Assembly: GCA_016196625.1 (NCBI GenBank) | Contig: JACPXH010000013.1 | Coordinates: 4,516-68,515 of the forward strand | Reading direction: 5' to 3' | Source of the DNA: Candidatus Parcubacteria bacterium | GTDB lineage: Bacteria > Patescibacteriota > Minisyncoccia > JACPXH01 | DNA: 64,000 bases | In this document: piece after piece, positions 9,936-63,807 of the stretch | Layout of the letters: each line of letters opens with the position of its first letter | How positions within the stretch are numbered: position 1 is the first letter of the stretch | Notes under the pieces: generated by a model | Told to the model about the DNA's origin: nothing | Seen by the model: only the letters and a program-made list of their open reading frames with translations | The model's database searches: none | Made by a program: the position numbers and the translations under genes

Positions 9936-10040
9936 TGATTCCAGAGTAGCAGATTCTGTGGGGCGGAACAACGATTGACAGTTTAAATGGTCTTGTGTTC
10001 TCTTCGAGGGGGCGCGCAGACCGCGCCTTATCCGCCTTCG

Positions 10041-10117
10041 TGAAACTCCACGGGCAGAGCCCGTGGTCCTCTGCGACGGCGGGCAGAAAACCGCGGGCGT
10101 AAGCCCGCGGAGCTTCA
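10041..10117. repeat. Tandem pair of REP-like hairpin elements (TGAAACTCCACGGGCagaGCCCGTGG... and CCGCGGGCgtaaGCCCGCGGAGCTTCA)
   Basis: Stems CCACGGGC/GCCCGTGG and CCGCGGGC/GCCCGCGG with AGCTTCA flanks. Related copies at 36906, 36998, 37746, 53336 and 63723. Confidence 0.6.
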
Positions 10118-10822
10118 TTTGCTTTCTGGCCCCACGAGGCGCTTCAGATCGGCATAGGTTTTCGGCAGGTCAATGCGCCGGCCATTCACGAAAAACGCCG
10201 GCACGCTCTCGACGCCTGACTTCCGTCCGCTCCGGAGATCGTCCATGATTTTTTTGCGCACGCTCGGGTCGTTGAAGTCTTTGCGAAAGCGCTGGATATC
10301 AAGGCCGAGTTCACGGGCGTACCGTTCAAATTGGACTTCGACACGCGTCGCGCTCTTCCAGTCCGATTGGCGCTCATAGAGTATTTGATAGTAATCCCAG
10401 AACCTTTCCTGTTGGCCAGCCGCTTCGGCCGCAACCGCAGCCGAGCGGGCATTGGGGTGAATGCGATCCAATGGGAAGTGCCGGTAGATAAAGCGGAAGC
10501 GCCCGCCAAAATCTTTTTCAAGCTGATTGGTCGCTTGCCAAAAATTGCGGCAGGCCGGGCACTGGAAGTCGCTATACTCGACGACCGTAACGTGCGCCTC
10601 GGTCGGACCGCGGGTCCAGTCACGCTCGGTTGGCGCAAGCGCCAAGAGTGCGGCGGCGGTCTGCCCTGCGTTAGGCTCGATACGGGAGAGGGAAAATCGC
10701 CAGATGGCCCAAGAGATTGCGACCACAATCAAAACAATGCCCAGCCACAGGGCGTATTTCTTGGCGGATTGAGGCCATTTTCCGTTTGGAGGTTGACCGG
10801 GCATCAACCTTGAGGAAACCAA
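10115..10822 (-). CDS. DsbA-like thioredoxin-fold thiol-disulfide oxidoreductase
   Basis: CxxC active site (FQCPACRNFW) in a thioredoxin-like context. N-terminal TM/signal. Confidence 0.7.
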   Translation of the reverse strand: MVSSRLMPGQPPNGKWPQSAKKYALWLGIVLIVVAISWAIWRFSLSRIEPNAGQTAAALLALAPTERDWTRGPTEAHVTVVEYSDFQCPACRNFWQATNQLEKDFGGRFRFIYRHFPLDRIHPNARSAAVAAEAAGQQERFWDYYQILYERQSDWKSATRVEVQFERYARELGLDIQRFRKDFNDPSVRKKIMDDLRSGRKSGVESVPAFFVNGRRIDLPKTYADLKRLVGPESK

Positions 10823-13997: not shown

Positions 13998-15452
13998 TTA
14001 AGATTTACCCAACGCACCACAAGGCCATCGTCTCCTGCTCGCCTCGCTTCGCGGGCGAAGCGGGCCGGTGGATGAATGGTTGGTGCGTAGGCCTTCGGTG
14101 CGGGGTTCCGCCCCGCCACCGAAATACGAGGTGCCGCCGACTCCCGTCGGCGGGGCTCCACGGTGATGCGGATGGCCGCCAAAGCGGGTGCGGCTGACGC
14201 GGTGGATGGGGCGTTGCAGCGGGTGATGGGTGCGGGCCGGCGGGAGCTCGGGGAGCTTTGATACGGGCAGAGACTTTCGGATGAGCCGTTCAATGCTGCG
14301 AACTTCGCGCTGTTCTTCAGGCAGCACGAACGATATGGCGTGCCCCTCGGCCCCGGCCCGGGCCGTGCGGCCGATCCGGTGAACGTAGTCTTCTGAATGC
14401 GCCGGCAAGTCGTAGTTGAGCACGAGTTCAATCCCCTGTACGTCAATGCCGCGCGCCGCAATGTCGGTAGCCACAAGCACCCGGTATTTACCCGACTTAA
14501 ACCCGTCCAGCGCATCGCGCCGCTGCCCGAGCGAGCGGTTGGAGTGAATTTCGGCCGCGCTGTGGCTCATGGCGCGTACAGCCTTGGTCACGCGTTTGGC
14601 GCCGTATTTCGTACGGGTGAATACCAGCGCCGACCCGGTGTGTTCCGTGAGGATAATCTCGAGCAGGCGGTTTTTCGCTTCGCGCTTTACGATGAAGAGC
14701 TCTTGAGTCACGCGTTCAACCGTGGTGCCGGAAGGTGCGATTTCAATGCGAACGGGGAGTTTCATGTTGGCCGTTGCGACCCTCATGATTGCCGGCGAGA
14801 GCGTGGCCGAAAACAACATGGTCTGGCGATCTTTGGGAACGGCCTGGAGGATTTTTTGGACTTGCGGCAGAAACCCCATGTCGAGCATGCGGTCGGCTTC
14901 GTCGAGGACGAGCATATGGACGTTTCCGAGCGTTACCGTTTTCTGATTCAGGTGGTCAATCAACCGGCCGGGGGTGGCAACGATAATGTGGGGGTTCTTC
15001 CCAATCGCTTGGATCTGCGGCTTCATGGAAGCGCCGCCGATTAAAACCGCTGTGCGCAGCCCGAGTGAGCGGCCGACCGCGTGAAGCATCTCATCAACTT
15101 GGAGCGCCAGTTCTCGCGTGGGCACCAGAACAAGGCCTCGCCCTTTGGTTCGGGCGAGGATTTGAATCATGGGGATACCGAAGGCGAGAGTCTTGCCGGT
15201 TCCAGTTTGCGCCACGCCCACAACGTCTTTGCCCTGCATGGCAATCGGAATCGCTTGACGCTGAATCGGGGTCGGGGTCGCATAGCGGAGCTGTGCGAGA
15301 ATCTCAAGAATTCCCGGCGCGATGCCAAGACCGTAGAAACCAGAAGCGGGTGGTTGGACTGGTTGCCTCATGGAATCATCGGGGCCGATTGGTCTGCGAT
15401 TATCGGGAGCATCACGAGAACCTCTGTGTGGCGTTTGTAAAATTCCACGCAC
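13998..15452 (-). CDS. DEAD-box ATP-dependent RNA helicase with a Gly-rich C-terminal tail
   Basis: Q motif and motif I (PTPIQRQAIP...AQTGTGKT), DEAD, SAT and HRIGRTAR motifs. The last roughly 50 codons are encoded by repeat element A (14006-14161). Confidence 0.85.
   Translation of the reverse strand: MRGILQTPHRGSRDAPDNRRPIGPDDSMRQPVQPPASGFYGLGIAPGILEILAQLRYATPTPIQRQAIPIAMQGKDVVGVAQTGTGKTLAFGIPMIQILARTKGRGLVLVPTRELALQVDEMLHAVGRSLGLRTAVLIGGASMKPQIQAIGKNPHIIVATPGRLIDHLNQKTVTLGNVHMLVLDEADRMLDMGFLPQVQKILQAVPKDRQTMLFSATLSPAIMRVATANMKLPVRIEIAPSGTTVERVTQELFIVKREAKNRLLEIILTEHTGSALVFTRTKYGAKRVTKAVRAMSHSAAEIHSNRSLGQRRDALDGFKSGKYRVLVATDIAARGIDVQGIELVLNYDLPAHSEDYVHRIGRTARAGAEGHAISFVLPEEQREVRSIERLIRKSLPVSKLPELPPARTHHPLQRPIHRVSRTRFGGHPHHRGAPPTGVGGTSYFGGGAEPRTEGLRTNHSSTGPLRPRSEASRRRWPCGALGKS
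14006..14161. repeat. Hairpin-rich repeat element, copy A (156 nt), in-frame inside the 3' end of the DEAD-box helicase CDS
   Basis: About 95% identical to 40600-40728 apart from a 27-nt insertion. Contains a 13-bp stem (CTTCGGTGCGGGG ttcc GCCCCGCCACCGAAG) and an 8-bp stem (CCGCCGAC tccc GTCGGCGG). Confidence 0.6.
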
Positions 15453-18282: not shown

Positions 18283-18314
18283 ACATATTATAATACGATC
18301 GTATTATAATATGT
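18283..18314. promoter_or_regulatory. 32-bp perfect palindrome ACATATTATAATACGATCGTATTATAATATGT overlapping the start codon of the PaaX-like regulator; putative auto-operator
   Basis: Perfect dyad read directly. Half-site ATTATAATACGA. Related sites at 18967, 21361, 37578 and 49594. Confidence 0.5.
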
Positions 18315-18921
18315 GAACGGGAGGGAATCAGAGCGTATGAAGATAAACGGAGCGAAACCGGTGCGCCGGCGGCCGAAGCTACGCGGGCCTTCCCGGGAGT
18401 TCCTGCGGTATCTCGCCGTTGCCGGAGTCGTTGTGGCGATCTCATTGATTGCGCCGCAGCTTCCGGTACAGCTCCTCAAGAACTTCCTGCGCAGACGCCA
18501 CACGTTCGACCCGTCGTCCTTCAGGCAATTTGGTGCGCGTCTGCACAAGCAAGGGCTTGTCAAAATGCAGCAACGAGAAAGCATCCTTACGTTCCGTTTG
18601 ACTGCGGGGGGAGAACGTCTGGCGCAGCAGATCGCGCTCACTAACATCTCGATTGTTCGGCCGCCACGGTGGGATGGTCTTTGGCGGGTCGTCCTCTTTG
18701 ATATCCCGGAGCATGATCGCTTTACGCGGGATTCATTCCGCGCCCTCTTAGAGCGCATCGGATTTGTGAAGATTCAGCGGAGTGTGTTTGCTCATCCCTT
18801 TCCATGCGACAAAGAGATTGAGCTTGCCGTTCGAGTATTCCATCTCGATCGCTCGGTTATTCTGTTTACCGCGACGACTCTGAGCGACGATCGCAGACTC
18901 CGAAGTTTATTTAATCTGTAA
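18313..18921 (+). CDS. PaaX-family-like transcriptional regulator (wHTH + WDGxW domain)
   Basis: PRWDGLWRVVLFDIPEHD is comparable to E. coli PaaX PAWDGKWLLLLSEGLDKS. It is preceded by a wHTH-like segment and followed by GFVKIQRSVF. The start may be the ATG at 18337. Confidence 0.5.
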   Translation: MNGRESERMKINGAKPVRRRPKLRGPSREFLRYLAVAGVVVAISLIAPQLPVQLLKNFLRRRHTFDPSSFRQFGARLHKQGLVKMQQRESILTFRLTAGGERLAQQIALTNISIVRPPRWDGLWRVVLFDIPEHDRFTRDSFRALLERIGFVKIQRSVFAHPFPCDKEIELAVRVFHLDRSVILFTATTLSDDRRLRSLFNL

Positions 18922-19003
18922 GCCGAGCAGATTCTCGATCTGGTTTCTGATTTTCTGTTTGCCAAATTATACTACGATCGTATTATAATGCGTAAACGTT
19001 TGG
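18907..19003. repeat. About 95-bp segment (3' tail of the PaaX-like gene plus downstream near-palindrome 18967-18990), duplicated at 37517-37616
   Basis: About 97% identity to 37517-37616 (copies differ at 2 positions; TTTATTTAATCTGTAAGCCGAGCAGATTCTCGATCTGGTTTCTGATTTTCTGTTTGCCAAATTATACTACGATCGTA[T/G]TATAATGCGTAA[A/G]CGTTT). The site ATTATACTACGATCGTATTATAAT is a 24-bp dyad with one mismatch. Confidence 0.6.
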
Positions 19004-19092
19004 AGTATATAATATATGGGATACATAATGGGTATATGAAAACTACGGTCGGTAATCGGCGAAAACTTAGCACCGTGGCCGGAAAATCGAAA

Positions 19093-19135
19093 CGCAAAAA
19101 AGATTGGGGCGGGCAACCAGCTGGTTGCCCGCCCC
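19093..19135 (-). terminator. Rho-independent terminator
   Basis: GGGGCGGGCAACCAG/CTGGTTGCCCGCCCC perfect stem followed on the minus strand by AATCTTTTTTG. Downstream of the 19156-19452 gene. Confidence 0.6.
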
Positions 19136-19155
19136 ATCGTTGAAGGATCGTTGGG

Positions 19156-19452
19156 CTACTCGGTTCTGCCCGGCAGACGTTCGGTCGCCACACTATACAG
19201 CAGTCTTGCTCGGGAGCTTGGCAGCGGCCCCAGCGCACGATTGGCCTCGCGCAGGGCCTCGGCGTCATCCTCCGGCGACTCTACGGGCTCGAGGAAATCC
19301 GAGAGTTCGGCGAGCGTAAGCTGGAACGAATCCTCGTAGAGCTCGCCGATCGTAATGGTAAAAGTTACCGCATCCGGGTCCAGCGTCTCGTCGCGCGCCA
19401 CGCGAAGCGCGGCTTTGTCCGCCAAGAGACTCGCAAGCGAGTGAGCTATCAC
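19156..19452 (-). CDS. Acidic hypothetical protein (98 aa)
   Basis: Asp/Glu-rich ORF with a terminator immediately downstream. No motif. Confidence 0.4.
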   Translation of the reverse strand: MIAHSLASLLADKAALRVARDETLDPDAVTFTITIGELYEDSFQLTLAELSDFLEPVESPEDDAEALREANRALGPLPSSRARLLYSVATERLPGRTE

Positions 19453-20504: not shown

Positions 20505-21050
20505 CTAGGCGGTCTCGGCGCGCTTGATCACCGTGAGCATCTCGTCCAGCAGCTCGCGGCGTTTACGGATTGCGATGAGACTCGTTTCGCGGCGCTTTTC
20601 GGCCCTCGCGAGCGCATTACGGAACGCCGAGACGACCTCATCGAAGAAGAAGAACTCCCAGGTTGGTTGACCACTATCCTCGGTACAGTGGAGATGGAAT
20701 CTGCGTGCAGGGCAGATCCGCAGAACCAAAAAGGTCCCTTTCTCTCCCAAGCACAGCTCCTCGTCCAGGTCGGTCCCGTTGATGGCGTCGTGGACCTGCT
20801 GTCGCAACAGCCGTACCGACCTCTCCTTGGTAAAATGGTTGGGGGGGAGCTGGGGACAACGCTCGCCGTGCGCGGCGTAGATCCACTCGATCGGTACCGC
20901 GATGTGTCCAAGGATCGGTTTCAGACGTTGCACGAGCTCGGAGACGATTTCTCTCGCCTTCGCTGCGCACTCGAGATCCCGGACGGTCGAGTCTTCACCG
21001 TACATGAGATCATGAACGCGGAAACTTGTCGGACTGTTGGGCGTACCCAT
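20505..21050 (-). CDS. Hypothetical protein (181 aa)
   Basis: ATG at 21048-21050. No recognisable domain. Confidence 0.4.
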   Translation of the reverse strand: MGTPNSPTSFRVHDLMYGEDSTVRDLECAAKAREIVSELVQRLKPILGHIAVPIEWIYAAHGERCPQLPPNHFTKERSVRLLRQQVHDAINGTDLDEELCLGEKGTFLVLRICPARRFHLHCTEDSGQPTWEFFFFDEVVSAFRNALARAEKRRETSLIAIRKRRELLDEMLTVIKRAETA

Positions 21051-21360: not shown

Positions 21361-21386
21361 CATTATAATACGATCGTAGTATAATG
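21361..21386. promoter_or_regulatory. 26-bp near-perfect palindrome CATTATAATACGATCGTAGTATAATG (PaaX-like site family), solo copy
   Basis: One mismatch in the dyad. Lies about 95 bp beyond the 3' end of the giant gene. Confidence 0.45.
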
Positions 21387-21481
21387 TGGCAGACAAAAAA
21401 TTAGAACTAGAGACAGAATTTAAACTCTGTCTGCTTAGCAATGACGCTCCGTGCGGGAGGTGCTGTGAGGCAACTGCGCAA

Positions 21482-28593: not shown

Positions 28594-31020
28594 TTACCGC
28601 CCGGTCCCCTGCTCTGTGGGTGGAGCTGTGGTGAGCGCGGGCATTTGGGAAAGTCGGGTCCGAACTTCTTGTTCGACCGCCGCGCGGTCCCGGCCGTATA
28701 TTGAGCTCGACCACTGCCGAACTGCGTGTGCCGCCGCCGGATCCCCTTTGCGCGGCAGGTTGATCACAAAGTTAAAGGGCGAAGTGGTTTTGCCTTGAGA
28801 CATGAGCCGCGCGTAGGCGTTGAAGTTATCAAGGTTGATGAGATCAGATGCGGCAAAGGCCGGCGCAAACTGGGGTTCGATGGATTCGGCGTCTTCCACT
28901 CCCACCCGAAACGAAACCAAGGATCCCACGTTGCCGAAGACCGCGTTTTTGATTTCGTCCGTGAGTTGTTTGATGAATTGATGCGCGAGCGTGAGATTGA
29001 GCCGGTACTTGCGTGCTTCGGACAGGATTGTCGCAATGGACGGGGTCGCGAAGCTCTGGAATTCGTCCAAGTAGAGGTAAAAATCGGACCGCGCCTCCTC
29101 GGCTGCGTCGGTTCGGCTCAAAGCCGCCAAAAGCAGTTTGCCCACGAGAATCAGGCCAAGGAGGGAGCTGTTGAGTTCGCCCAGACGCCCTTTGGTGAGG
29201 TTAACGAGGAGAATCTTGCGTTCGTCCATCACTTGGCGAAAATTAAATGAGCTTTGCTCTTGGGCGATGATGGGGCGCATGATGTCGTTGGCAATGAACA
29301 GGTTCATCTTTGAAGTGATGTAGGGCACCATGTTCGCGAGCGCCGCTTCCCCGCCGGCTTTCTCCGCCTCCAGCTCCCAGAAATTCTTGATTACCATGTT
29401 CGTCGTGCGTGAGAGTTTCAACTTGCGAAACTCTTTATCCGCGAGCACCCGCGGGATTTCCAGGAGCGTATTGCCGGAGGCAGGATCTTCCATGACCAGC
29501 AGCACGGCGTTGCGCATGTATTGTTCAAACATGGGCCCGCCGGTAACTTTCAGATCGTAGAGCTTGTCAAAAATGGCGATGAGTTCATTCGCGATGAAGG
29601 TTTTCTGCTCGGGGTGCGCCGGGTCATATTCAAGCATGTTAAGCCCGAGGGGCCGTTCGATGTCGCCCGGGTTGAAATAGATTACTTCTTCCCGGCGGCT
29701 CGCGGGCACGAGTCCGAGGAGGTCGTCGGCCAAATCTCCGTGCGGGTCTATAAGCGCAAGGCCCTCTCCGGCCTCAATGTCTTGACGCGCGAGTTCTTTG
29801 ATGAGCGACGATTTGCCGGTTCCAGTTTGGCCTATAATATAGAGGTGTCTCCGGCGGTCTTCGCGCGCGATACGGATTACGGTTTCTCTGCCCCGAAAGA
29901 CGTTGCGCCCCAACATCAGACCTTCAAGGGGAAGGTTGAGCGGCGGCTCGGCCTGACGGGCTTTGAGCGCGTGCAGTTTGGGTGCTTCGAGCGAGGGGGT
30001 CGCAAAGTGATACATGCTACTCAACTCATCGGCACTCAAGATAAGCGCATCGCGTGAACGAAAGAGACGCCATGAAAACGCAAAGAGAAGCGACTCCAAC
30101 CGGCCGCCCTTGCGCCGCTTAAATGAGAGCGAGTTGGTCGGGGGAGCGCTCAAGGGGGCAAAGGCGGTTTCCATCTGTTCGAGCAGCGCTTTCGCCCGAG
30201 TCTCTTCTGCCGCCGAGGCCACCACCCGAACATTGGCTGCAAAGACGGGCGTGCGGGCCTTGCGCTCGATGGCCTCCACCGCTTCGGGGTCAACGGGTTC
30301 GTTCTTGCTTTCGCCGGGGCCTCGGGTCGAGTTTGCTTTGAGCTTTTGGGCTTGGGCCACGCTTTCGGCGCCCCAGCGTTTGGGAGCGGGTTGGAGCAGA
30401 ATTTGGATGGCCGCACCCTCCCCTTCTTTGGCAATTTTGCTTAAGGCCGTGGCAATCGCGCTTAAGGGATCCACTTCAAGCTCACGGAAGGTGCGCAGCG
30501 ACAGGCGGCTGTTTTTGACCTCAAGGATTGAGGCTTCGTGTCTGCCGTGGGGATTGAACAGGTTATAGTCCGGTACCGCCTCGATTACGGCTTCCGGGAA
30601 AAAGCCGTGGATGTGTTTTTCGAACGCTTCAGCCAGCCGCCTCGGGAAGGCCGCGAAAAACTGAATTTCCTCGCCCACATGGGGGACGGCCAGTTCAAAG
30701 GCAACCGTGGGCATCCCCCGGAGGATCGCCCGCCACCACTTCTCTTTTAGAAACGTCAGGCTCGCGTAGAACTGACTCATGACGGCGAGCCCCTCGCGCA
30801 TTCGTTCCACTGCCGATCGATCCGACTCCAGGGGACGGTTCGGAAGCGCAATCGCGAAGAGGGCGAGGTTCAGGGCGCGCGCGGTCTCCCCTCGGCGTCG
30901 GAGCGTAACTAAACCCCAAGCCGCCGCAGTGCCGCCCACCGTAAGGACGGCGAGGGTTATGAGGATGAGCCAGAGGAGGAAAGAGAGATCGAGGGGCACG
31001 GTCAAAAGTTCAAATGCCAA
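28594..31020 (-). CDS. Membrane-anchored VirB4/TraG/HerA-like P-loop NTPase (AAA_10/DUF87-type)
   Basis: Two N-terminal TM helices. Walker A GQTGTGKSS followed by LIDPHGDL, Walker B FYLYLDEFQ, then LTLAHQ. TTG start at 31018-31020 lies inside an AT-rich heptad leader. Confidence 0.55.
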   Translation of the reverse strand: MAFELLTVPLDLSFLLWLILITLAVLTVGGTAAAWGLVTLRRRGETARALNLALFAIALPNRPLESDRSAVERMREGLAVMSQFYASLTFLKEKWWRAILRGMPTVAFELAVPHVGEEIQFFAAFPRRLAEAFEKHIHGFFPEAVIEAVPDYNLFNPHGRHEASILEVKNSRLSLRTFRELEVDPLSAIATALSKIAKEGEGAAIQILLQPAPKRWGAESVAQAQKLKANSTRGPGESKNEPVDPEAVEAIERKARTPVFAANVRVVASAAEETRAKALLEQMETAFAPLSAPPTNSLSFKRRKGGRLESLLFAFSWRLFRSRDALILSADELSSMYHFATPSLEAPKLHALKARQAEPPLNLPLEGLMLGRNVFRGRETVIRIAREDRRRHLYIIGQTGTGKSSLIKELARQDIEAGEGLALIDPHGDLADDLLGLVPASRREEVIYFNPGDIERPLGLNMLEYDPAHPEQKTFIANELIAIFDKLYDLKVTGGPMFEQYMRNAVLLVMEDPASGNTLLEIPRVLADKEFRKLKLSRTTNMVIKNFWELEAEKAGGEAALANMVPYITSKMNLFIANDIMRPIIAQEQSSFNFRQVMDERKILLVNLTKGRLGELNSSLLGLILVGKLLLAALSRTDAAEEARSDFYLYLDEFQSFATPSIATILSEARKYRLNLTLAHQFIKQLTDEIKNAVFGNVGSLVSFRVGVEDAESIEPQFAPAFAASDLINLDNFNAYARLMSQGKTTSPFNFVINLPRKGDPAAAHAVRQWSSSIYGRDRAAVEQEVRTRLSQMPALTTAPPTEQGTGR

Positions 31021-31088
31021 AATCCAAATGCCAAATCAAACTTAAAGTTCAAAATCCAAAATCGCTTCGGCATTTGGGCTTTGGATTT
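31021..31088. promoter_or_regulatory. AT-rich heptad-repeat leader (units TTTGRMW) abutting the ATPase start
   Basis: Shares an about 55-nt block (AAATGCCGAAGCGATTTTGGATTTTGAACTTTAAGTTTGATTTG) with 33745-33821. Related repeats at 31488-31551, 49621-49675 and 60941-61124. Confidence 0.5.
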
Positions 31089-33694: not shown

Positions 33695-33821
33695 GTTCAA
33701 AGTTCAAAGTTCAAATTTCAAAGCTCAAATGTCAAATCCAAAGCCCAAATGCCGAAGCGATTTTGGATTTTGAACTTTAAGTTTGATTTGAAATTTGGAT
33801 TTTGTCATTTGGATTTCAGGT
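33695..33821. repeat. AT-rich heptad repeats in palindromic arrangement ((GTTCAAA)3 TTTCAAA GCTCAAA TGTCAAA ... then the inverse TTTTGGATTTTGAACTTTAAGTTTGATTTG...)
   Basis: Tandem 7-mers read directly. The right half is a leader for the downstream GT39 gene. Confidence 0.6.
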
Positions 33822-36905: not shown

Positions 36906-37022
36906 CCCGCCGTCGCAGAAAGCCACGGCCGTGAGGCCGTGGATGAATGCGTAAGCAGAGTCCTTCCGAAGCTCGAAGGACAAAGGAGGATGCTTTGGCG
37001 GGCGTAAGCCCGCGGAGCTTTA
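36906..37022. repeat. Cluster of REP-like hairpins (CCACGGCCgtgaGGCCGTGG; GCGGGCgtaaGCCCGCGGAGCTT)
   Basis: Same family as the elements at 10041-10117, here with the first unit inverted. Confidence 0.55.
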
Positions 37023-37099: not shown

Positions 37100-37522
37100 T
37101 CACGGGAGAGCCGCGAGGACCTTTTCCACCACCTTGCGATGGTTCGGAAAAAAATCCTGCTTGGCGAGGATGTCCCGGGGCTTGAACACCCCGATTTCCT
37201 CGCTCTCGTCTCCCTCGGACTTCATCTGCGGGAGGGCCGTGAGGTTTGCCCGAAAGATGGTGAGGATGTGGCTGCCCTTGTCCTCGGAGTGGACGACTGC
37301 GAGGTCATTCTCCGACAAGGACACACCAATCTCCTCTTCCAACTCCCGAATGGCGCAACCCCGGGCCGTTTCCGTTGCTTCGCCCCTACCGCCGGGCAAC
37401 TTCCAGAAAACTGGTGCCGGCTTTTTGGGGTCCCGAATGAGCGGGATGCCCTGGGGCGTGACGAGGAGAACTGCAACTGCGTGTCCTTTTTTTGGTGCTG
37501 TTTTCGAGAACGTAGATTTTAT
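37100..37522 (-). CDS. NUDIX hydrolase with no canonical start codon (possibly 5'-disrupted)
   Basis: Nudix box GGRGEATETARGCAIRELEEEIGV. The open frame extends upstream (..KGHAVAVLLVTPQGIPLIRDPKK..) to an in-frame stop at 37523-37525 with no ATG or GTG. The only listed start is the TTG at 37399, which falls inside the fold. Confidence 0.45.
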   Translation of the reverse strand: MKSTFSKTAPKKGHAVAVLLVTPQGIPLIRDPKKPAPVFWKLPGGRGEATETARGCAIRELEEEIGVSLSENDLAVVHSEDKGSHILTIFRANLTALPQMKSEGDESEEIGVFKPRDILAKQDFFPNHRKVVEKVLAALP

Positions 37523-37616
37523 TTAATCTGTAAGCCGAGCAGATTCTCGATCTGGTTTCTGATTTTCTGTTTGCCAAATTATACTACGATCGTAGTATAA
37601 TGCGTAAGCGTTTTGG
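37517..37616. repeat. Second copy of the 95-bp PaaX-gene-tail + palindrome segment (perfect 24-bp palindrome ATTATACTACGATCGTAGTATAAT at 37578-37601)
   Basis: Near-identical to 18907-19003. Abuts the 5' end of the NUDIX reading frame. Confidence 0.6.
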
Positions 37617-37745
37617 GGCCGTAAGATTTTATCCGTTTCTCAGAAAACCGTGGGCGTGAACCCACAGTTGAATGCGGAGCGGATATCATGAGTAAATATC
37701 AAAGGGCATGCCTTCGGAATGCTGCGGCGGATTCCGCCGAGGATA

Positions 37746-37772
37746 CCACGGGCGTAAGCCCGTGGAGCTTCA
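37746..37772. repeat. REP-like hairpin CCACGGGCgtaaGCCCGTGGAGCTTCA
   Basis: Family member. Confidence 0.5.
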
Positions 37773-37800
37773 CTTTATCGCCGGCCGAGGTTACTTTCTT

Positions 37801-38697
37801 TCATTTGTAGTACACGCGGTTTTCTATTCTCGCGTCTACGTATTCTTGAATTTTGCTAAAGTCGCCCCTGATCTCTTGTTTGAAAAACCGGCCGAGGTTG
37901 GCTAGTTGCCGGCCGAAGAGTTCTCCGCGCGGAACGATAATGCGGATTCCACTGGGTCCGTAACCAACGAAACTGTCTGCAAGCTCGGGCACCACCGCAA
38001 AGGCGGCGACGGGAAACCCAAACTCTTGCGGCGCGGCAGCGTTGATCGAGAGTAGTTCGTGGATCAGCTGTTGGTCTGCGACCGGTTTGCCCAACTGCCA
38101 CGTTTGCCCCCGGTAATCTTTGGCGACCACTACGAGCGCTCCTTGGGAGGCGAGCGCCGGCCGGAACGCGATGCCCTCTTGGTCAACCGAAGCGCACGCG
38201 GCAATGTCCTCTGTGCCCGTTGCCGGAAGCGCGAGTGCGGCCGTGGTGGTGGCTGTTGGTTCGGCTGGCGGGATGGGCGGGCGCTGTGCCCGGCACCATA
38301 GCAGCGCCTGCGTACGTTCCGTAAGTGTGAGGATGCGCGTGTGGGGGAAGAGTGTGGTGAAGGCGGCAGAGGCAATTTCGGGAAATTGATTTTTTAGGGC
38401 CGCCTCGGCGTTTCGAGGCCTCGGCCATAAAAGCGATAAGAAGAAGTTTCGGTTTGAAAAACCGAACTTCCGCTGGGAGTACAGCTCTCCAAAAGCGTGC
38501 TGGACAAGCGTGCGGTCGAGGTTTCGGGTGCCGGCCACGGTAAATTCTTGAAGCTCAAAAGTCTTTGCGCGCAGAAGCCACACGCTAACGCCGGCGAGCG
38601 CGATCAGGGCGGCGAGCGCCCCGGCCAGCCACCGCCCAAAACGGGATTTTTTTGTGGCACCGCGCACCATTCCCGCTACTCTTGACTTATTGACCAC
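37801..38697 (-). CDS. ftsQ: Cell-division protein FtsQ/DivIB-like
   Basis: N-terminal TM, a POTRA-like segment (FELQEFTVAGTRNLDRTLVQ) and a C-terminal FtsQ-type domain. Confidence 0.6.
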   Translation of the reverse strand: MVNKSRVAGMVRGATKKSRFGRWLAGALAALIALAGVSVWLLRAKTFELQEFTVAGTRNLDRTLVQHAFGELYSQRKFGFSNRNFFLSLLWPRPRNAEAALKNQFPEIASAAFTTLFPHTRILTLTERTQALLWCRAQRPPIPPAEPTATTTAALALPATGTEDIAACASVDQEGIAFRPALASQGALVVVAKDYRGQTWQLGKPVADQQLIHELLSINAAAPQEFGFPVAAFAVVPELADSFVGYGPSGIRIIVPRGELFGRQLANLGRFFKQEIRGDFSKIQEYVDARIENRVYYK

Positions 38698-40545: not shown

Positions 40546-40599
40546 ACGTGAGGAATATAGAATCTCGAATTATGAATCACGAATAACGGCTTAAATTCT

Positions 40600-40728
40600 T
40601 ACCCAACGCACCAGAAGGCCATCGGCTCCTGCCGGTAGATGAATGGTTGGTGCGTAGGCCTTCGGTGCGGGGTTCCGCCCCGCCACCGAAGTACGAGGTG
40701 CCGCCGACTCCAGTCGGCGGGGCTCCAC
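40600..40728. repeat. Hairpin-rich repeat element, copy B (129 nt), in the serS upstream region
   Basis: Near-identical to 14006-14161, including the stop-codon-proximal end. Remains open in the DEAD-helicase frame. Confidence 0.6.
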
Positions 40729-40763: not shown

Positions 40764-40793
40764 CCATTCTAATGTATTAATACATTAGAATGG
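40764..40793. promoter_or_regulatory. 30-bp perfect palindrome CCATTCTAATGTATTAATACATTAGAATGG, third copy of the TrpR-like site
   Basis: Perfect dyad. Lies 14 nt after the NUDIX-HD gene stop and about 220 nt upstream of the serS start. Confidence 0.5.
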
Positions 40794-48378: not shown

Positions 48379-49437
48379 CTAAGAAATTTTGAGCCCCATT
48401 TCGTAGGGAGTCGGCACCAGAAGAGGTTTCAGAGAGTCTATGTCTTCAAGGATGAGCCCGGTGCCGCGCACTACCGTGGTCAGCGGATCTTCGGCCACGC
48501 GCGTGGGGATCTGTGTTTCAAGCTGGACCAGTTCCGCCAGTTTGCGCAAGAGACTCCCGCCGCCCGCCAGCACGATGCCCCGGTCCATGATGTCGGCCAC
48601 AAGCTCCGGCGGGGTTTCTTCCACAGTCGTTTTGATGGCGTTGACTACCGCGGCGACCGAATGCTGAATTGCCCGGCGGATGTGAGCATCGGTTACCGTT
48701 ACCTCCTTGGGAAGTCCGGTGATGAGGTCGCGGCCGCGCATGGGAGCCTCTTCCGGCTTTTCGAGCTCCATGGCTGAACCGACGGCGATTTTCACCTCCT
48801 CGGCAGTACGTTCGCCCAAAAGCAGCTTGCATTCATCCCGGGCAAAACTAATGATGTCCTCTGACATTTTGTCGCCGGCAATCCGGAGGCTGCGACTGGT
48901 TACGATGCCGCCCAGTGAAATAACCGCGACTTCAGTCGTGCCTCCGCCTATATCCACGATCATGTTGCCGGCGGCGTCCTGGACCGGAAGGCGCGCGCCG
49001 ATAGCGGCGGCCATGGGCTCTTCCACCAGATACACTTCGCGCGCGCCCGCATTTCGCGAGGCATCCTCCACGGCCCGCCTTTCAACCTCGGTTACGCCCG
49101 AGGGAATTCCGATCACCACCCGCGGCCGGGGCAACAGGGAAAAGCCGCCTTCGTGCACTCGGGAGATAAAATAGCGCAGCATAGTCTCGGTGATTTCAAA
49201 ATCAGAGACCACGCCGGCAACCAAGGGCCGCGTGGCCACGATGTGGCCGGGGGTGCGGCCCACCATACGTTTGGCCGCAGTGCCGATTGCAAGAATCTGG
49301 CCAGTCTTTTGGTTGATGGCGACAACCGACGGCTCGTTAATAACAATGCCGCGGCCGCGCACGTAGACCAACGTATTGGCCGTGCCAAGGTCAATACCTA
49401 TATCTTTCGAAAACAGGCCAAAGAATCTGTTGAGCAC
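48379..49437 (-). CDS. mreB: Rod shape-determining protein MreB (actin homolog)
   Basis: GIDLGTANTLVYV..., DIGGGTTEVAVISLGGIV and other actin-fold motifs. Confidence 0.9.
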   Translation of the reverse strand: MLNRFFGLFSKDIGIDLGTANTLVYVRGRGIVINEPSVVAINQKTGQILAIGTAAKRMVGRTPGHIVATRPLVAGVVSDFEITETMLRYFISRVHEGGFSLLPRPRVVIGIPSGVTEVERRAVEDASRNAGAREVYLVEEPMAAAIGARLPVQDAAGNMIVDIGGGTTEVAVISLGGIVTSRSLRIAGDKMSEDIISFARDECKLLLGERTAEEVKIAVGSAMELEKPEEAPMRGRDLITGLPKEVTVTDAHIRRAIQHSVAAVVNAIKTTVEETPPELVADIMDRGIVLAGGGSLLRKLAELVQLETQIPTRVAEDPLTTVVRGTGLILEDIDSLKPLLVPTPYEMGLKIS

Positions 49438-49593
49438 GTTTTTGGTATTAAAGCCGATATCCGGCCCGCGCCACGGGGTTTTCGGAAAAGAGGCTAGAGA
49501 AACGGTTGATCATAACAGCGCGAGCCCAGTATATACACGACCAGACGAAGAAAGCAAAAACGTTTCGCCGGCCGCAAGCTATCCAGTGCCACG

Positions 49594-49615
49594 TTATACT
49601 ACGATCGTAGTATAA
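49594..49615. promoter_or_regulatory. 22-bp perfect palindrome TTATACTACGATCGTAGTATAA (PaaX-like site family), about 160 bp upstream of mreB
   Basis: Perfect dyad. The downstream flank TATGTAAGCGTT resembles the flanks of the copies at 18990 and 37601. Confidence 0.45.
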
Positions 49616-49690
49616 TATGTAAGCGTTATGTAAACGTTTTGGATATTTTGGATTCTGAGCTTGATTTAAAATGAAGTTGTATATGCCGAA

Positions 49691-52633: not shown

Positions 52634-53176
52634 TCACCAATCGCACGCCGGCGGGCCGCTGCAGAGCATCAACGACCAGTTGGGACGCAGAGGATCGTAG
52701 AACGGATCGGTGTCGGACCACGTGCCTTCCGGCGAGCAGTTGGCCAGCAGTTTGTAATTCGTCTCGTCCGATTTATAGAGGTAGGCGGACTTGGTGCCTA
52801 CCAGACACCGCAGCGGCACGTACGGTGATTCGCCGCCTCGGGGATCGCGAGGCAGGGCCGAGACGTAGGTGGGGGTAAGTCCCGGGATCCAGTTGCCGCT
52901 GTTGTTGGAATAGAGATCTCCCGGCTCGGAAGAATACCAGTTGCTGCTGGTCGAGGGGTAGCGGTTGTTACGGTCGTAGTAGAGTTCAAGCGCGGTCTGG
53001 AGCTGGCGCATCGTGCTGCGCCGCGCGCTGTCGCGGGCGTTGATGCGCACGGTGCTCAAGGCAACGAGGATGATGCTGGCCACAAGCCCGGCGATCGCCA
53101 CGACCACTAAGAGTTCAATCATGGTAAACCCCGTTTGAGCGGCTGCTCCGCGACCGGCTCGCGTAAATAACGCCAT
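52634..53176 (-). CDS. Type IV pilin/pseudopilin with a prepilin-type N-terminal methylation motif
   Basis: Leader ...AQTG then FTMIELLVVVAIAGLVASIILVA (G/F cleavage site, Glu+5). The long listed N-terminal extension was discarded. Confidence 0.65.
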   Translation of the reverse strand: MALFTRAGRGAAAQTGFTMIELLVVVAIAGLVASIILVALSTVRINARDSARRSTMRQLQTALELYYDRNNRYPSTSSNWYSSEPGDLYSNNSGNWIPGLTPTYVSALPRDPRGGESPYVPLRCLVGTKSAYLYKSDETNYKLLANCSPEGTWSDTDPFYDPLRPNWSLMLCSGPPACDW

Positions 53177-53335
53177 CTTATTGGCTACCCGCCGTCGCAG
53201 AGGGCCATGGGCTCTGTCCGTGGGTGAATGCGCGGTTGGTATTCCGGGTGGGGTTGAGGGGGGTATATTCCTTGAGGCTGTGGCGGATGACGCTGCAGCC
53301 CGCTTGGATTCGCCCGAAAGGCGAATAGCGGGCTG

Positions 53336-53361
53336 CCACGGGCTCCGCCCGTGGAGCTTCA
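53336..53361. repeat. REP-like hairpin CCACGGGctccgCCCGTGGAGCTTCA
   Basis: Family member. Confidence 0.5.
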
Positions 53362-53433
53362 CTTCGGTGGGCATCGTCGTGAGGAGCTGGGTAAATCCGC
53401 GTTCGCCTCGGCTGGGGGAAATGCGGGTCATGG

Positions 53434-62468: not shown

Positions 62469-63725
62469 ATGAAGCTTGCCACACGCCGGTTTCTCTTTTG
62501 GCTCTCAATTGGCTTTTTTGTCGTGTTGGCACCCCTAGTTATCGGCTACGCTATCGGCTATCGGTTTGATTTTTCCGAGGGCGGCTTGGTGCGCACCGGC
62601 GCGCTTTTCGTGGAGGCGGAGCCGAAGAGGGTAGAAATCATCATTGATGGCAAACCGACCAAGCGCACGGGGACTATAATCACCAATTCAACTTTCGTGC
62701 GTGATCTTGCTCCCGGGCGCCACCGCGTGCGGCTTGAAAAAGAAAGCTACCAGCCATGGGAGAAAGAACTCGAAATCCGCCCCGCGGTCGTGACCGAAGT
62801 GCGAGGCGCGCGTCTCTGGCCGGCCGGGCGCGCGCCGGAAAATGTCGCGGTCCTCGGCCAGATTGACCCCGGGACGCTAAGACCATCGCCTGACGGTCGC
62901 GCGCTAGTTTGGGCGAGCACTTCCGGTCGAGTGCGAACGTGGCTTAAAAAAGACCTGCCTGATGGCCAAGTCGGTATCCTTGACTTTGCCACTCTCTTCG
63001 GGCTCAACAGCCGGAGCGCGGCAACTTTTGCTAGTGCCGCGACTGTTGATTGGTCTGCGGACTCGCAGTATCTCGTGGTGCGCCGAGGTGCGGACTGGTG
63101 GCGCTTGAGCCTGGATATCCGACGCGTCGAACGGCTGCCCCGACTTAACGGTCCGGGGTTGGTGCTTACCCCAGACACAGCGCTCACGATTGACGAACTC
63201 GGAATCCTGAACGCGTTCAGCCTACCCAACCAGAACATTGAAGCCATTGCGACGGCGGCGATAAATCCGATCCCGACCCCGGCCGATCGGCTCATCGCGC
63301 TCGACCGCGACCACGTGCTACTCCTCGATCACACCGGCACGTTACGCTGGTTCAACCCGAAAAGTCAGCTCTTCGAAGGGCTGGCCACCCGCGTGCGCGA
63401 CTCGGTTTTTTCGCCGGATCGCACAAAAATTCTTTGGCGGACCGCCACAGAGCTGTGGGTGCGCTCGCTTACCCCCGAAGGGCAGAGCGAGCTGGTTACG
63501 CGCTTATCAAGCCCGCTTGCGCAAGCGCTCTGGGCGGATCGGCAAAGCGCCCACATACTTTTTAGCACGGGCGATGCGGTGAAGGCGATCGAGTTGGACG
63601 CTCGCAGCGGCCGCAACAGCGCCGACCTTATATCGGTCAATGCTCCGACTGTCTTTCTGGGTTCAGGGGGGGAAAGTCTTTTGATTATTACTGCAGGGTC
63701 GCTGAAACGACTTTCGCTCCGGTGA
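62469..63725 (+). CDS. Membrane-anchored PEGA-domain protein with a C-terminal beta-rich domain
   Basis: N-terminal TM then a PEGA pattern (IIIDGKPTKRTGTII...LAPGRHRVRLEKESYQPWEKELEI). Confidence 0.55.
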   Translation: MKLATRRFLFWLSIGFFVVLAPLVIGYAIGYRFDFSEGGLVRTGALFVEAEPKRVEIIIDGKPTKRTGTIITNSTFVRDLAPGRHRVRLEKESYQPWEKELEIRPAVVTEVRGARLWPAGRAPENVAVLGQIDPGTLRPSPDGRALVWASTSGRVRTWLKKDLPDGQVGILDFATLFGLNSRSAATFASAATVDWSADSQYLVVRRGADWWRLSLDIRRVERLPRLNGPGLVLTPDTALTIDELGILNAFSLPNQNIEAIATAAINPIPTPADRLIALDRDHVLLLDHTGTLRWFNPKSQLFEGLATRVRDSVFSPDRTKILWRTATELWVRSLTPEGQSELVTRLSSPLAQALWADRQSAHILFSTGDAVKAIELDARSGRNSADLISVNAPTVFLGSGGESLLIITAGSLKRLSLR

Positions 63726-63768
63726 AGCTCCACGGGCAGAGCCCGTGGCCCTCGGCGACGGCGGGTAG
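63723..63768. repeat. REP-like element TGAAGCTCCACGGGCagaGCCCGTGGCCCTCGGCGACGGCGGGTAG
   Basis: Near-identical to 10041-10086. Confidence 0.55.
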
Positions 63769-63807
63769 ACGCCAAGAGCGCCCGGTGCCTGAAGCGCCGG
63801 CCGCTCT

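Follow-up and report, generated by a model that had tools for sequence, protein, structure and literature searches.

A palindrome-bearing segment from the 3' flank of a PaaX-like regulator gene recurs in intergenic DNA of a Candidatus Parcubacteria genome, including the altered 5' end of a NUDIX gene

How does a gene that encodes an intact enzyme come to lack a canonical start codon, and what does it signify that the DNA now abutting it is a copy of the flank of a regulator gene? This question arises from a 64,000-nucleotide stretch of the Candidatus Parcubacteria bacterium contig JACPXH010000013.1 (assembly GCA_016196625.1, positions 4,516 to 68,515, forward strand), referred to here as the window. 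The window holds a gene for a PaaX-like regulator and a gene for a NUDIX hydrolase, and a short segment from the 3' end of the former recurs at the 5' end of the latter. An original prediction, made from the sequence of the window, proposed that this duplication either truncated the NUDIX gene or supplied it with a new promoter and operator. Bacteria of the candidate phyla radiation (CPR), or Patescibacteria, possess very few transcription factors, and to our knowledge almost nothing is known of their regulons. Our analysis suggests that the duplicated segment belongs to a family of five related sites sharing a candidate operator, and that the NUDIX gene lost its native start in a history of more than one step.

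The near-identical repeat with two differences that was originally reported is real, and its limits could be refined. The copy at the regulator gene (copy A) and that at the NUDIX gene (copy B; coordinates in Table 1) agree at 94 of 96 positions, the mismatches being 18983T/37595G and 18996A/37608G and the longest exact run 77 nt. The shared segment has a G+C content of 35%, versus 57.5% for the window, and comprises, in order, the third base of a Ser codon, the codons L-F-N-L, a TAA stop, a hairpin with a T-rich tract, a TTGCCA box, the palindrome, and GCGTAARCGTTT. The stop codon of the regulator gene was copied as claimed, together with four full codons and one Ser base rather than the five codons first counted. 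The description of the copy B palindrome as a perfect 24-mer holds; the palindrome in copy A (18966-18989, 24 bp) has one mismatch. Derivation of the segment from the 3' flank of the regulator gene was likewise upheld. Across 17 to 21 homologues, the LRxxFxL motif at the regulator C terminus is conserved and its F192 does not vary, indicating that the gene tail belongs originally to copy A and was acquired at copy B. To its right, copy A is syntenic with homologous loci in two other genomes (L014 and L016), where twin palindromes and a downstream GGGCAACCAGCTGGTTGCCC hairpin are also found.

A G+C-rich hairpin, GGGGCGGGCAACCAGCTGGTTGCCCGCCCC, lies in this neighborhood (window 19105-19136; L014 10799-10828; L016 2177-2206 and 2734-2763). 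It serves as terminator for the convergent gene that follows the regulator cassette, and its sequence has been kept across genomes whose adjacent operator sequence changed completely.

Copy B is best explained as a recent duplicative insertion of approximately 97 to 101 nt of DNA lying directly 3' of the regulator gene. Direct repeats flanking it match at 12 of 13 positions, a score equaled in 38 of 5,000 shuffles. This suggests that either positions 37523-37619, which probably constitute the insert proper, were inserted duplicatively and about 12 nt of the target was duplicated, or the junctions share microhomology. The pre-insertion allele would read ...GAACGTAGATTTTAT joined straight to CCGTTTCTCAG.... 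When the insert was excised in silico and the left repeat kept, the frame opened upstream to a GTG at 37665 and an ATG at 37689; when the right repeat was kept, the frame met a TAA. Copy B may, then, have cut off a secondary upstream ATG or GTG.

The protein encoded by the NUDIX frame matches Pfam PF00293 (5.9e-16) and has homologues from Patescibacteria, and its Nudix box, GGRGEATETARGCAIRELEEEIGV (pattern GX5EX7REUXEEXGU), is intact and aligned with that of the orthologues. It had been claimed that this minus-strand frame runs into the copy and meets an in-frame stop without a canonical start, and that the sole candidate TTG lies inside the Nudix fold. Both statements are correct: the frame is closed by a TAA at 37525-37523, supplied by copy B, and in the frame up to this TAA there is no ATG, GTG, or TTG upstream of the TTG at 37399-37397, which encodes the Leu of WKLPGG directly before the Nudix box.

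Alignment of homologous loci, a check that had been recommended, revealed what the window lacks. The closest orthologues, 131 aa long and 95%, 91%, and 84% identical (loci L001, L002, and L102), have a native start, TTG TCA AAR GGA CAC, behind GGAGGTG and a leader, conserved over about 110 nt, that contains a TTGACA-type promoter. The orthologues start with TTG or ATG 2 to 15 codons before a conserved HAVAV motif. Homology between the window and these loci begins only at AAAAGGACAC, within a run of seven A residues (A7). The filler between this break and copy B, about 27 nt, matches no other part of the window, none of the orthologous leaders, and none of the loci retrieved. The start was thus lost at the A7 junction, about 25 to 30 nt from the edge of the copy, and the copy alone did not remove it. 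The original proposal that the insertion truncated the gene therefore stands for the in-frame TAA, which the copy contributed, and fails for the removal of the start, which comparison with L001, L002, and L102 assigns to a separate junction.

The most economical history of this 5' end, as reconstructed from the alignments, has two steps. In an older rearrangement, with a breakpoint in the A7 run, the native 5' end of the gene was exchanged for other sequence; a recent insertion of the copy, about 25 nt further upstream, then added the in-frame stop and perhaps separated the gene from a secondary start. We considered and rejected a simple deletion of 21 nt removing the native start, because the filler does not significantly resemble the orthologous leaders. 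The window lacks NUDIX-A, the operon partner found upstream in loci L003 to L008. The orthologous leader of about 110 nt (L001 100-213, L002 600-713, L102 540-654) also contains a GCCGCGGGATTCGYGCGGC hairpin.

What is it, then, that was copied? The 20-nt core of the palindrome, TATAMTACGATCGTAKTATA, occurs at five exact sites in the 64 kb, compared with 0.00 expected from 100 shuffles, which excludes chance. Two of the five sites flank the regulator gene. The upstream one lies in a longer perfect palindrome (18283-18314) between the divergent dnaX and regulator genes, where each strand has promoter-like hexamers (TCAACA-16-TATTAT and TTCACA-16-TATTAT), and we propose that it serves as an autoregulatory operator over a bidirectional promoter. 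Regulator homologues in four further lineages also lie between twin palindromes, of 38 to 44 nt. Three different palindrome sequence types have a CG(A/T)(A/T)CG center in common, and TATAAT-like boxes are present in the arms of each palindrome. From this placement, the palindrome is most likely the operator of the regulator: a dimer bound to the CGATCG-centered palindrome would occlude both -10 boxes and so repress transcription in both directions. A palindrome scan of the genome collection returned five loci, with a regulator homologue only at L013, indicating that the core sequence alone is not diagnostic outside the CPR; among the loci with no link to the regulator, L010 has a TetR-like neighbor and L009 has no homologue.

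The window contains a second AT-rich palindrome family, TTCTAATGTATTAATACATTAGAA, with three exact copies (1986-2017, 2501-2532, and 40764-40793) versus 0 expected. Between the first two lies the gene (2022-2480) of a TrpR-like regulator (Pfam Trp_repressor, 3.9e-8), and the third is upstream of serS. This layout of both flanks plus a solo copy matches that of the PaaX-like regulator, to which the TrpR-like regulator is unrelated.

The regulator protein ends after a Cas2-like domain, with no PaaX_C domain. Its residues 118 to 190 match Pfam PF20803 (PaaX_M) with an E value of 2.2e-19 and 69.7 bits against a cut-off of 24, while a Pfam scan of the protein gave no match to the PaaX N-terminal domain, and PF08223 is present only in distant, longer homologues (P0131 and P0132). 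An AlphaFold model has a predicted local distance difference test score (pLDDT) of 85, falling to 58 to 72 over the first 60 residues. The best PDB fold match of the model is E. coli PaaX (8a39; E value 1.1e-5 over 186 columns), and Cas2 chains match its C-terminal half. The helix and strand pattern of residues 17 to 102, a span that includes the low-pLDDT N terminus, aligns with PaaX 8a39 and with MarR-type winged helices. A regulator profile searched against PDB sequences gave no match, so that the fold search alone was informative here.

On the NCBIfam PaaX equivalog TIGR02277 the regulator scores 32 bits against a cut-off of 264.55. The original designation "PaaX-like" is thus apt for fold and domain but does not extend to orthology with PaaX. 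A protein from a Candidatus Parcubacteria metagenome-assembled genome (MAG), 100% identical to the regulator (P0108), is named "CRISPR-associated endonuclease Cas2" in NCBI because of a partial match to TIGR01573 (27 bits versus a cut-off of 24.5, residues 117 to 153 only). Repeat analysis found no CRISPR-like repeat array in the window, although cas1 was not searched for specifically. The neighbors of the regulator gene in the window, L014, and L016 are dnaX and hypothetical membrane proteins, with no paa gene among the neighboring proteins scanned. The regulator is a two-domain, PaaX-like protein that is neither orthologous to PaaX nor a CRISPR Cas2; its "Cas2" name is a misnomer, and the public annotation looks unreliable. 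A literature search found no paper on this regulator family or its palindromes.

The duplication at the NUDIX gene is not a one-off: sequence comparison makes copy B the youngest in a set of five related sites. The stretches similar to copy A are nested, from copy B (96 nt, 98%) through copy D (51 to 62 nt, 89 to 90%) to copy C (44 nt, 89%), and copy B is both the youngest and the longest of the solo copies. Copy D lies between the stop of a 1,520-aa gene and a hypothetical gene (20505-21050) within a stretch of about 105 nt that is an insertion relative to the syntenic intergenic region of L016. L104 and L105, whose MreB is 96% identical, do not have the copy C palindrome before mreB, where their DNA is nonhomologous to that of the window, and L014, which covers the syntenic 20 kb, has the two flanking copies only. 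The absence of copies B, C, and D from relatives indicates that the solo copies were acquired in this lineage. The module has thereby spread to no fewer than three other intergenic sites, those upstream of the hypothetical gene, mreB, and the NUDIX gene.

Table 1. Coordinates of the features discussed in the text, with the palindromes found around homologous regulator genes
Feature	Position	Strand	Remarks
Regulator gene, 194 aa	18337-18921	+	Predicted N-terminal winged helix, and Cas2-like PaaX_M; without PaaX C-terminal domain
Copy A (parent)	18906-19001	+	Regulator tail and stop, short hairpin with T-rich tract, TTGCCA box, palindrome, GCGTAAACGTTT
Copy B	37518-37613	+	98% identical to copy A
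Copy C	49587-49630	+	44 nt, 89% identity; ~158 nt upstream of mreB (48379-49437, minus)
Copy D	21361-21465	-	Older, diverged; 51-62 nt similar at 89-90%, inverted
Perfect 24-bp palindrome ATTATACTACGATCGTAGTATAAT in copy B	37578-37601	.	TATAAT boxes outward on both strands
Left direct repeat CGTAGATTTTAT	37511-37522	+	Final 5 nt overlap start of A/B identity
Right direct repeat CGTAAGATTTTAT	37620-37632	+	Resembles target-site duplication
NUDIX open frame	37100-37522	-	Codons 13-140 orthologous to 131-aa NUDIX hydrolases
A7 run (T7 on +)	37487-37493	-	Breakpoint that, from alignments, removed native leader, GGAGGTG, and TTG start
Filler	37494-37517	-	~27 nt, between homology break and copy B
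Core site	18289	.	Within perfect 32-bp palindrome ACATATTATAATACGATCGTATTATAATATGT, 18283-18314; 23 nt upstream of regulator ATG
Core site	18968		Copy A, directly past regulator stop codon
Core site	21364		Copy D, inverted orientation
Core site	37580		Copy B
Core site	49595		Copy C, ~158 nt upstream of mreB
L014/L015 regulator, 65% identical			TTTCCTAATTATATCACGTACGTGATATAATTAGGAAA each side, 41/41 nt identical
L016 regulator, 64% identical			TTTCCTAATATTACTACGAACGTGGTAATATTAGGAAAA one side, close variant other side
L097 regulator, 39% identical			44- and 42-nt palindromes centered on CGCGATCGCG
L013 regulator (Yanofskybacteria MAG), ~27% identical			Window core both sides; downstream palindrome directly before tsaD

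Whether the copy brought the NUDIX gene a usable promoter depends on its orientation. A consensus scan found a promoter-like site on the plus strand of copy B, TTGCCA-16-TAGTAT at 37571-37598, and the same arrangement (TTGCCA-16-TAKTAT) is present in copy A; promoter assignments here are consensus matches throughout. The box facing the NUDIX gene, a TATAAT on the minus strand of the palindrome (37583-37578), has a poor -35 region, TTACGC. Copy C is oriented to mreB as copy B is to the NUDIX gene, and copy D alone has its gene downstream of the TGCCA side. Of the promoter and operator that the copy was originally said to have delivered, a candidate operator with -10 boxes stands, and a promoter facing the NUDIX gene is plausible but not strong.

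We consider it fairly probable, from the features described above, that the NUDIX gene has recently been decapitated and is silent or barely translated beside a new operator and promoter; this new promoter, under control of the regulator, could transcribe it. The one start left to the gene would be a rare ATA that has no Shine-Dalgarno motif. The 128 orthologous codons are intact, dN/dS (the ratio of nonsynonymous to synonymous substitution rates) against L001 and L002 is 0.10 to 0.12, and changes on the window branch number 7 synonymous to 2 nonsynonymous (binomial P = 0.0011), indicating that purifying selection acted on the gene along most of its branch. With 2 differences in 96 nt the copy is very young, and decay since the insertion would escape detection.

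Several points weigh against this reading. An intact frame with low dN/dS would fit a still-expressed gene equally, and the stronger -35 box of copy B, TTGCCA, points away from the NUDIX gene. Shine-Dalgarno motifs were not enriched at starts in a survey of the window, which makes their absence at the NUDIX gene uninformative, and we withdrew it as an argument for a dead gene. The operator role of the palindrome draws wholly on position and comparison, and the silencing of the gene is likewise read from sequence. Two distant regulator homologues (L098 and L100) have no flanking palindrome at the threshold used. The L013 regulator shares the window core at about 27% identity, yet regulators that are 64 to 65% identical have different palindromes, implying that the co-variation is not simply phylogenetic. 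The junctions are taken from one MAG assembly; the copy B junction was found in no other contig, the best match in a metagenome scan with the NUDIX protein being 58% identical.

The principal alternative is that the NUDIX gene has been rewired and is still expressed, from the TATAAT at 37583-37578 under the regulator, with translation starting at the ATA at 37522 or at an ACG at 37513-37511 in an A-rich, unstructured leader. The preserved codons and Nudix box and the 7:2 ratio of changes agree with this view, as does the perfect TATAAT facing the gene. The apparently low use of Shine-Dalgarno motifs in the genome implies that initiation without one may be normal, and the fold of the leader RNA is no better than that of shuffles (z = -0.5). 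The NCBI pipeline also took the ATA as the start: the GenBank protein MBI3305299.1 (140 aa) begins at ATA 37522-37520, inside copy B. This start is, however, an algorithmic choice of the pipeline rather than evidence of function, and the annotation looks unreliable. Against rewiring stand the canonical starts within about 15 codons of KGHAVAV in 16 of 16 aligned orthologues, and the low efficiency of ATA and ACG, which in bacteria, where measured, initiate at a small fraction of AUG efficiency. The duplication is moreover too young for the purifying selection to be measured since the event. On balance we judge rewiring unlikely. A riboswitch or small RNA at the NUDIX leader was considered and dropped, given the unremarkable fold and the lack of any Rfam family in 37400-37820; a search of 18880-19170 yielded only sub-threshold noise.

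A second alternative concerns the module as a whole. The regulator and its twin palindromes might be a present or former mobile cassette, in which the Cas2-like domain acts as a nuclease on the palindromes and copies B, C, and D are solo-end derivatives, resembling miniature inverted-repeat transposable elements (MITEs), mobilized in trans. Several features are consistent with such a cassette: the twin palindromes are identical over as many as 41 of 41 nt (L014), copy B carries a piece of the regulator 3' end and a 12/13-nt direct repeat like a target-site duplication, and copy D is a discrete insertion whose junctions resemble the single L016 target sequence. The Cas2-type FDIPE strand motif, including its Asp, is invariant across the regulator family, and the gene's neighbors vary among distant lineages. 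However, the dnaX/regulator/convergent-gene synteny is kept across regulators that are only 64 to 65% identical, implying that the gene has been immobile for a long time, and each locus examined has one gene copy only. The insert has no terminal inverted repeats, the left ends of B, D, and C differ, and there was no match in plasmid or phage collections. No significant direct repeat flanks copy C. The twin palindromes around the TrpR-like regulator, which has a classical repressor fold, favor a regulatory over a mobile role. We therefore regard a mobile cassette as quite doubtful.

A bolder form of this idea, in which the regulator would nick or process its own 3' palindromic end, generate the ~12-nt target duplication, spread its operator, and so build a regulon, is to our minds more doubtful still. 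If true, it would represent a self-propagating cassette observed while spreading, with a NUDIX gene as the casualty, and the TrpR-like twin-palindrome cassette would suggest that regulons grow in this way more generally in CPR bacteria.

Least probable of all is an artefact, namely a chimeric join at the repeat or a miscounted A7/T7 run hiding a real start: the sequence comes from one MAG contig, the exact repeat of 77 nt is longer than common k-mer sizes, and a 63-aa TTG open reading frame (ORF; 37577-37386) meets the NUDIX frame exactly at A7, where an A6 run would fuse them, but swapping the repeat copies leaves the NUDIX-side junction unchanged, the right context of copy A is confirmed by the L014 and L016 synteny so that the copies are not cross-joined, inspection found no ATG, GTG, or TTG in any frame from the TAA to the conserved codons, and the TTG at 37577 abuts the -10 box and is probably outside the transcript. 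For the same reason, and with no support from homologues, a +1 frameshift or slippage at A7 that fuses this ORF to the NUDIX frame is unlikely. The TTG ORF (MANRKSETRSRICSAYRLNK...) directly follows the palindrome on the minus strand in both copies (37386-37577 and 18792-18965) and is probably meaningless.

The window contains other repeats. Positions 14005-14161 and 40599-40728 form a duplication of about 130 to 160 nt, 94 to 97% identical, with a 27-nt indel and G+C-rich hairpins, located at the 3' end of a DEAD-box helicase ORF and between serS and a NUDIX-HD gene. G+C-rich hairpins resembling repetitive extragenic palindromic (REP) sequences (e.g., CCACGGGCGTAAGCCCGTGGAGCTTCAC) occur in intergenic DNA in both orientations at 10040-10131, 36930-37020, 37648-37668, 37740-37786, 53176-53375, and 63722-63777, two of them between copy B and the upstream 298-aa gene. 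A pair of A-rich inverted repeats of 83 to 86 nt (31006-31088 and 33734-33816), 94% complementary in the window, brackets a PMT_2 glycosyltransferase gene; the repeats are conserved in L014 (16977-17062 and 19587-19672) and could be a paired regulatory or invertible element.

The locus offers a candidate operator for a widespread CPR regulator that is mislabeled Cas2 in public records, a recurring layout with an operator on both flanks, found in five lineages and in a second regulator family of the window, and a dated example of an operator and promoter module apparently copied to new genes (mreB, the hypothetical gene, and the NUDIX gene). It also calls for caution in annotation, as the inserted copy created the ATA at which the deposited NUDIX protein starts, and the gene for that protein is probably decapitated. 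The finding does not overturn current understanding; its main value lies in a regulator-operator pair that is now directly testable and in the correction of two public annotations, the "Cas2" name and the ATA-start NUDIX protein.

How does this system compare with those already known? With PaaX (E. coli W, 8a39) the regulator shares the architecture of a winged helix, here predicted, followed by a central Cas2-like domain, but it is 194 rather than about 305 aa long, has no C-terminal domain, and has no paa genes among the neighbors examined; its palindrome, moreover, appears unlike the PaaX operator. With Cas2 it shares the ferredoxin-like fold and a strand motif with a conserved Asp, but it matches only part of the Cas2 model, carries a predicted N-terminal DNA-binding domain, lies in a window with no CRISPR array, and is not a stand-alone protein of about 90 to 100 aa.

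In classical autoregulated repressors with auxiliary operators, an operator overlaps the repressor's own -10 box and a second site lies at a distance. The candidate operator described here is similar in being a palindrome over the regulator's own -10 box with a second identical site several hundred base pairs away, but differs in that the second site lies just past the 3' end of the regulator gene, usually facing a convergent gene. We know of no description of this twin-flank operator arrangement in CPR bacteria. Promoter-bearing MITEs and REP-type repeats, such as the Correia elements of Neisseria and REPIN/RAYT systems, are short intergenic repeats with a palindrome, which insert close to genes and may act as a source of promoters. 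The copies resemble them as palindrome-containing intergenic repeats near genes, one of which (copy B) has a flanking direct repeat. Here, however, the palindrome is internal, the copy lengths are nested, the copy number is low, and no dedicated transposase is evident; with no terminal inverted repeats and unequal copy lengths, the family does not appear to be a canonical MITE.

The closest likeness is to putative mobile promoters. Matus-Garcia, Nijveen & van Passel (2012; PMC3488235) described intergenic segments of 50 to 100 nt, at least 80% identical, that recur upstream of unrelated genes within one genome, and interpreted them as recycled regulatory DNA. Copies A, B, and D fall within this operational definition and copy C, at 44 nt, is slightly short, and the genes downstream of the copies (NUDIX, the hypothetical protein, and mreB) are nonhomologous. 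The sequence comparisons thus point to a real, if modest, case of operator and promoter propagation in a CPR genome. It differs from the earlier examples in that the donor is identifiable as the 3' flank of the regulator gene, gene tail included, that the module carries the regulator's probable operator and so a whole regulatory input rather than a promoter alone, and that one copy coincides with the loss of a gene's start.

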